DNA from: Escherichia coli
GTDB taxonomy: Bacteria; Pseudomonadota; Gammaproteobacteria; Enterobacterales; Enterobacteriaceae
Length of the DNA: 64,000 bases
Strand: one strand, 5' to 3'
Assembly: GCF_003334815.1 (NCBI RefSeq)
Contig: NZ_QOWO01000001.1
This document shows, piece by piece, positions 3,366 to 3,470 of the stretch. Numbering within the stretch: position 1 is the first letter of the stretch; every line of letters begins with the position of its first letter. A model generated the notes under the pieces. That model had not been told where the DNA came from. It did no database searches and saw only the letters and a list, made by a program, of their open reading frames with translations. A program made the translations under genes and the position numbers.

Positions 3366-3470
3366 CTCCCTCTCCCTTCCAGGGAGAGGGTCGGGGTGAG
3401 GGTAATTTTTCGCACCGATGCTGGCCTGTTCCCCTCACCCTAACCCTCTCCCCAAACGGGGCGAGGGGAC
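3366..3470. repeat. GC-rich inverted repeat pair (boxC-like intergenic repeat)
   Basis: gggagagggtcggggtgaggg at 3381-3401 and its near-exact reverse complement ccctcaccctaaccctctccc at 3433-3453; resembles the E. coli boxC repeat family from memory. Confidence 0.5.

Follow-up and report, generated by a model that had tools for sequence, protein, structure and literature searches.

Two GC-rich, inverted copies of a short sequence lie close together between the alx and sstT genes of Escherichia coli. What is this repeat pair, and does it perform a task for the genes on either side of it? We addressed this question with the whole stretch of E. coli DNA that carries the pair (64,000 nucleotides, called the window below; positions are window positions unless they are given as MG1655 coordinates). 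In the window, alx (2349-3314) is the upstream gene and sstT (3713-4957) is the downstream gene, and both are read on the plus strand. These assignments come from the ORF list and from the RefSeq annotation of identical DNA, and they confirm the location between alx and sstT that a first-pass annotation of this DNA had given.

Sequence and identity of the repeat pair

The first-pass annotation described two inverted copies of a 21-bp motif. The 21-mer, GGGAGAGGGTYRGGGTGAGGG, matches exactly at 3382-3402 on the plus strand and at 3432-3452 on the minus strand, and at these two places only in the 64-kb window. A third match was not found in the window with up to three mismatches, and 100 dinucleotide-preserving shuffles contained no match. 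Thus, the two inverted copies are real. Their separation had been given as about 31 bp; 29 nt lie between the 21-mers, a trivial difference. A repeat search delimited arms at 3382-3405 and 3429-3452, which are 24 nt long, 88% complementary and separated by a gap of 23 nt.

A 9-nt C-block is present outside each 21-mer on the same strand, namely CCCTCTCCC at 3368-3376 and, on the minus strand, CCCTCGCCC at 3459-3467. The C-blocks were left out of the earlier description, although they lie inside the region that it covered (3366-3470). In the inverted-repeat search, each C-block was complementary to G-block 1 of its own copy. The repeating unit is therefore not the 21-mer but an element of three blocks with a length of 36-37 nt, in the order C-block, loop, G-block, 3-nt loop and G-block. 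The plus-strand element (3368-3403) is composed of a C-block (3368-3376), a loop (3377-3381), G-block 1 (3382-3390), the loop TCG (3391-3393) and G-block 2 (3394-3402). In the minus-strand element (3431-3467), the corresponding parts are the C-block at 3459-3467, the loop at 3453-3458, G-block 1 at 3444-3452, the loop TTA at 3441-3443 and G-block 2 at 3432-3440. Between the elements is a spacer of 27 nt, AATTTTTCGCACCGATGCTGGCCTGTT (3404-3430), which is homologous to the spacers of other K-12 pairs.

Holder et al. (2015; PMC4666352) described the TMECO motif and equated it with the earlier BoxC and PIT. Its consensus is 5'-CCCTCNCCC-N3-6-GGGNGAGGG-N3-GGGNGAGGG-3' (C-stem, loop, G-stem, 3-nt loop, G-stem). 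The window contains two exact fits to this consensus, at 3368-3402 (+) and 3432-3467 (-), and no match was found in 100 shuffled sequences. Among the 23 MG1655 copies in Table 1 of PMC4666352, entries 12 and 13 are each found once in the window without a differing letter. Entry 12 (type B, 36-mer, 3,239,599-3,239,634, plus strand) is at 3368-3403 (+), and entry 13 (type A with one mismatch, 37-mer, 3,239,698-3,239,662, minus strand) is at 3431-3467 (-). The coordinates of both entries agree with NC_000913.3, in which 3,239,545 is the end of alx and 3,239,944 the start of sstT. Over 701 nt, the window and MG1655 are identical except for a single base (3539). According to PMC4666352, the second loop sets the type of a copy (TTA, type A; CCG-like, type B) and an inverted pair consists of one A and one B. 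The second loop of the plus-strand copy is TCG (listed as type B) and that of the minus-strand copy is TTA (type A with a mismatch). Kaplan et al. (2016; PMC5100583) catalogued the same sites as HPGQ 34 (+) and HPGQ 35 (-), with the gene context 'alx >>> ... >>> sstT', and interpreted the G-rich arms as G-quadruplex/hairpin switches. Thus, the alx-sstT repeat pair is an ordinary, catalogued BoxC/PIT/TMECO copy, made up of TMECO 12 and TMECO 13, and the earlier name 'boxC-like' was correct.

BoxC is said to have been first described at the fabI (envM) locus, by Bergler et al. in 1992. A copy that lies 165 nt from fabI (205-240, minus strand, in sequence L010) is of type A. It differs from the element at 3431-3467 only in loop 1, and the two have the flank GGGGACyG in common. 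PMC2267715 cites a BoxC entry of 56 bp with 32 copies. We use BoxC as a synonym of TMECO on the basis of this entry and of the statement in PMC4666352.

All tested features of the alx-sstT pair are the same as those of the BoxC/PIT/TMECO family (PMC4666352; Bergler et al. 1992; Hoyne et al. 2000), that is, the consensus, the A and B loops, the inverted pairing of A with B, the intergenic chromosomal place and the multicopy occurrence; there is no difference in kind. The HPGQ motifs HPG1 and HPG2 (PMC5100583) are the same sequences with another structural reading, a G-quadruplex/hairpin switch instead of a triplex. The pair is already known: it stands in two published catalogues at its exact position, and knowledge of the family goes back to the 1990s. 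Because the exact sequences and coordinates are in these catalogues, the identification has little weight as a discovery.

Rfam profiles were run against the region and against the whole window, and nothing at this repeat reached a gathering score. The top match at the repeat scored 27.3 bits (gathering score, 83), and all matches there were to eukaryotic miRNA precursor models. We rejected these matches as chance, because any long hairpin gives such sub-threshold scores. The only Rfam match above its gathering score in the window is the class A RNase P RNA gene (33985-34361, minus strand, 318.6 bits).

A minus-strand ORF of 76 aa (3268-3498) crosses the repeat pair, and the GC-rich blocks give its translation a high content of P, G, E and R. 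This ORF is probably an artefact of the GC-rich repeat, and gene callers could pick it up.

Distribution of the family and a composite unit

A 126-nt query that covers the pair had matches in all complete E. coli genomes (5426/5426), with a median of 17 places per genome. A K-12 MG1655 record has 19 places. Across the 5426 genomes, 83,181 family places are on chromosomes and 34 are on plasmids. These counts agree with the description in PMC4666352, in which the copies are intergenic, without strand bias and not on mobile elements. A chance or locus-specific hairpin was rejected because of the empty shuffles and the genome-wide copies. The strong conservation of the three blocks over hundreds of copies in many genera is unexplained by pure neutrality. 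In the collection of papers that our literature search covered, there were no later functional studies of TMECO, PIT or HPGQ.

PMC4666352 reports five inverted pairs in MG1655, every one of which combines type A with type B, and our re-scan gave the same result (5/5 K-12 pairs). We aligned the alx-sstT pair with the other four K-12 pairs (hrpB-mrcB, fepB-entC, ygfF-gcvP and lldD-trmL). The tail-to-tail geometry of alx-sstT is also present at hrpB-mrcB, fepB-entC and ygfF-gcvP. These four tail-to-tail pairs have in common both elements, the left flank TTTTCy and the right flank GGGGACnGAnnGAGCnCTTTT. The full spacer, TAAnnnTTCGCACCnnTGCnGGCCTGTT, is common to alx-sstT, fepB-entC and ygfF-gcvP; that of hrpB-mrcB is shorter (16 nt) and alignable in part only. 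The lldD-trmL pair is head-to-head and has no spacer in common with the other pairs. Judged from this alignment, the tail-to-tail K-12 pairs are copies of one composite of ~125 nt, present at several chromosomal sites, and the A+B pairing in these copies is explained by common descent of the composite.

At alx-sstT, the composite extends over about 3361-3489 (the boundaries from the K-12 alignment are approximate) and contains a short left flank, the type B element, the spacer, the inverted type A element and the type A flank with a T-run. Among the four aligned composite copies, the T-run is well formed at alx-sstT only. The orientation with respect to genes also varies: the fepB-entC copy lies between divergent genes and the ygfF-gcvP copy is read in reverse. 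The common spacer and flanks of the composite, together with the allele frequencies in the 5426 genomes given below, are details that go slightly beyond the published papers.

The composite has likenesses to several known repeats. Like REP/BIME elements, it is short, GC-rich, palindromic and intergenic, and both kinds of repeat frequently occur as inverted pairs and on the downstream side of genes. It differs from them in that the sequence families are unrelated and BoxC has a third block. We know of no dedicated transposase for BoxC, comparable to RAYT for REP, and of no protein that binds it. With ERIC/IRU and MITE-like repeats it has in common a length of ~125 nt, an imperfect palindrome, an intergenic place, frequent transcription and presence/absence polymorphism. 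The difference is that no target-site duplication was recognisable at the four composite copies. Moreover, to our knowledge, no transposase ends related to the BoxC composite have been described. The composite, rather than the single 36-nt element, might itself be the functional or mobile unit, either as a MITE-like element that is moved by an enzyme or as a transcribed 3'-UTR module that sets the fate of the alx mRNA. We consider this very unlikely.

Alleles of the alx-sstT spacer

Three allele classes emerged from a 501-nt query across the spacer, and representatives of two of them were aligned with the window. The full pair, with at least 99% identity over the 126-nt element, is present in 2567 of the 5426 genomes (about 47%). 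A 76-bp deletion allele is carried by 1163/5426 genomes (21%), including ATCC 11775. In 1667/5426 genomes (31%), the pair is replaced by TRIP1d. Almost no genome falls outside these three classes. Many unrelated strains have a full pair with 100% identity, which could reflect constraint or only the low divergence within E. coli.

The deletion allele keeps one CCCTCTCCC, followed by CAAAAGGGGCGAGGGG, and what remains is a plain hairpin. In the full pair, CCCTCTCCC is present as a direct repeat on the plus strand, with a left copy at 3368-3376 and a right copy at 3444-3452. The starts of the two 9-mers (3368 and 3444) are separated by exactly 76 nt, which places one endpoint of the deletion in each copy. 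Trimming of pairs to a simple hairpin has been reported for the family and was termed the 'palindrome effect' (PMC4666352). Escherichia sp. E1V33 has a degenerate version of the pair at this position; loop 1 is longer and 6 nt are missing in the type A copy. The pair thus predates E. coli proper, and the short allele arose by deletion. The short allele as the ancestral state was rejected, because E1V33 has the pair and the pair copies a composite that is found elsewhere.

In the TRIP1d allele, the sequence from the last alx codons to ~3528 is replaced by ~430 nt of unrelated, GC-rich sequence, which corresponds to the TRIP1d repeat of PMC10888264. TRIP1 thus occupies the same alx-sstT spacer as an alternative allele; it is an unrelated and longer sequence and is absent from the window. 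Within TRIP1d alleles (L002, at 200-620; L003; L004), the 21-nt unit GCGCATGGATGCGCGGCGAGG varies in copy number, and the matched spans are 658, 718 and 739 bp. E. albertii (L012) has a shorter allele of the TRIP1d type. The C-terminal codons of alx read ...QRGG-stop with BoxC alleles (window 3306-3314) versus ...QRGE-stop with TRIP1d (L002 192-200). Since the last codons differ by allele class, the TRIP1d breakpoint is inside the end of the gene.

We also compared the alx loci of 80 genomes of other species; sstT is downstream of alx in 66 of them, including 3 Escherichia. An element or a remnant is present in 4 of the 63 non-Escherichia alx-sstT loci. Leclercia (L037, 2481-2513) and Enterobacter hormaechei (L067, 2491-2523) have one BoxC-type element each, which is in minus orientation and follows the alx stop codon by 25-35 nt. 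At the corresponding place, there is a relaxed match in E. cloacae (L066, 2491-2522) and a hairpin remnant in an Enterobacter metagenome assembly (L062, 1184-1204). The flanks in Leclercia and Enterobacter are unrelated to those of the E. coli copy, and therefore the same spacer seems to have been occupied independently. Genomes of this kind contain hundreds of copies (PMC4666352). No clean empty site was found in Escherichia among the 80 alx loci, and other genera differ across the whole spacer.

Among the roles that had been suggested for the pair in the first-pass annotation, that of a site of recombination or instability is the only one to gain support, and this support comes from the 76-bp deletion allele. 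Even so, the allele may derive from a single old event that was inherited by one lineage, rather than from recurrent instability. A stronger version of the idea is that the element is selected as a hot spot that generates variation by recombination or rearrangement, instability being its purpose and not a by-product. Three sharply different alleles at one intergenic site fit such a hot spot, as does the report that variability around the repeats is higher than at control intergenic sites or random hairpins (PMC4666352). However, the alleles are near-uniform within each class, which fits a few old events better than ongoing change at a high rate. The TRIP1d allele is also found in E. albertii, so that the polymorphism is old or has been exchanged. 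Moreover, a recombination function would lead one to expect more large rearrangements than are found (PMC4666352), and second-order selection for instability is hard to sustain. We therefore regard a selected hot spot as highly improbable.

Transcription, folding and possible roles

Folding predictions bear out the potential for a large cruciform or RNA hairpin that had been proposed for the pair. As RNA of one strand or the other, 3361-3470 is predicted to fold into a single long hairpin (-63.2 kcal/mol, z = -5.4; -65.9 kcal/mol, z = -6.5). The predicted DNA fold consists of three shorter hairpins (z = -4.0 to -4.9), one for each element and one that joins the inner G/C blocks.

Two terminator-like sites follow the pair on the plus strand. 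The first is a weak hairpin, GGACU/AGUCC followed by T6, at 3463-3489 (pattern scan, 3463-3485), which overlaps the conserved type A flank; its predicted energy is not distinctive (-12.3 kcal/mol, z = -1.3). The large stem of the pair ends at 3467, 16 nt ahead of the T6 run, and therefore it is not a canonical intrinsic terminator. The second site is a weak hairpin with a T-rich run at 3506-3533 (-7.5 kcal/mol, z = -0.9), which was found by the scan (3506-3524) and by alignment with Citrobacter, where the aligned hairpin with T5 has -22.6 kcal/mol. From this alignment, 3506-3533 is the putative alx terminator. The alx-sstT spacers of Citrobacter and Klebsiella are shorter, at about 255-285 nt. 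The sstT leader, which starts at ~3531, is conserved in Escherichia, Citrobacter and Klebsiella, and the sequence from the alx stop to 3530 is variable. The composite would thus follow the alx stop codon and precede the ancestral alx terminator. If so, it is probably transcribed in the alx 3' end, as 3' untranslated region.

A terminator role had been considered for the pair in the first-pass annotation. As summarised in PMC4666352, Hoyne and Maher (2002) found family members to be without promoter or terminator activity; these reporter tests concern family members, which need not include the alx-sstT composite and its T6 flank. A terminator role is also inconsistent with the heterogeneous way in which family members are placed and oriented with respect to genes (PMC5100583). 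In Term-seq data (PMC7815308), the plus-strand ends are 3,238,482 (alx leader) and 3,239,923 and 3,239,988 (sstT), and among the ends listed there is no 3' end at the pair or just after it. Because alx is poorly expressed in those conditions, this is weak evidence.

The conserved sstT leader (3531-3712, ~180 nt) contains one of these ends, 3,239,923, which corresponds to window position 3692 and lies 21 nt before the sstT start. Its conservation and this 3' end suggest that the leader is a conserved 5'-UTR regulatory element; it had no match to an Rfam family. On the other side of the pair, the E. coli alx leader (window ~2130-2348) is a described member of the yybP-ykoY riboswitches. In Rfam scans, the yybP-ykoY profile (RF00080) did not match upstream of alx; a 341-nt slice scanned at E <= 10 gave no match either. 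The strong Term-seq 3' end at 3,238,482 (PMC7815308) corresponds to position 2251 in this leader.

The main rival to a passive element is a role as RNA. REP RNA hairpins shield upstream mRNA from exonucleases, and this protection serves as the model: the pair would act in the alx transcript, where it would terminate transcription or block 3'-to-5' exonucleases, and thereby affect alx mRNA stability and the shielding of sstT. The element is in the sense direction after alx and upstream of the position of the Citrobacter terminator, its predicted RNA hairpin is very stable, and the two terminator-like sites (3463-3485 and 3506-3524) come after it. The hairpin at the terminator position is far weaker in prediction than that of Citrobacter, so that another structure could have taken over. 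Moreover, the RNA of the deletion allele retains a hairpin (-19.6 kcal/mol), and the T6 run after the alx-sstT copy is lacking in the other composites. Against these points stand the reported lack of terminator activity in family members, the 16 nt between the big stem and the T-run, and the Term-seq ends. In addition, the same composite lies between divergent genes at fepB-entC and in the opposite orientation at ygfF-gcvP, and 31% of E. coli genomes are without the element. On balance, we consider the RNA role unlikely.

The G-rich arms raise another idea, namely that the pair is a DNA structural switch (duplex, hairpin, intrastrand triplex, G-quadruplex) that regulates nearby promoters or replication. 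Four G3 tracts are present in each G-rich arm, which is accompanied by a complementary C-block. Oligonucleotides of both type A and type B form a stable purine-motif intrastrand triplex in vitro, as observed by CD and NMR with the isolated G-rich strand (PMC4666352), and CD evidence shows hairpin and quadruplex forms that depend on the cation (PMC5100583). However, double-stranded TMECO gave duplex signals only, and DMS footprinting in vivo revealed no protection of the triplex guanines (PMC4666352). Neighbouring ORFs are 10 to 310 nt away without a trend, and the neighbours belong to no functional class (PMC4666352). At the present locus, the conserved sstT leader starts ~60 nt downstream of the element, and genera without the element keep this leader. 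Hence, we give a regulatory DNA switch hardly any credence.

In our view, the pair is quite probably a passively carried, structure-prone BoxC composite that has no locus-specific regulatory job and that destabilises the locus. The entry of the composite, after the alx stop codon and ahead of the alx terminator, would predate the split of E. coli from Escherichia sp. E1V33, and the composite would probably be transcribed as part of the alx 3' end. During replication, its arms may fold back when they are single-stranded. Slippage or misalignment between short direct repeats could then delete part of the pair, and such deletions would make the locus unusually polymorphic.

If the composite were instead a transcribed 3'-UTR module, the 76-bp deletion and the TRIP1d replacement would lead to differences between lineages in alx or sstT expression. 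With three alleles at one site, alx-sstT is a convenient natural test case for BoxC.
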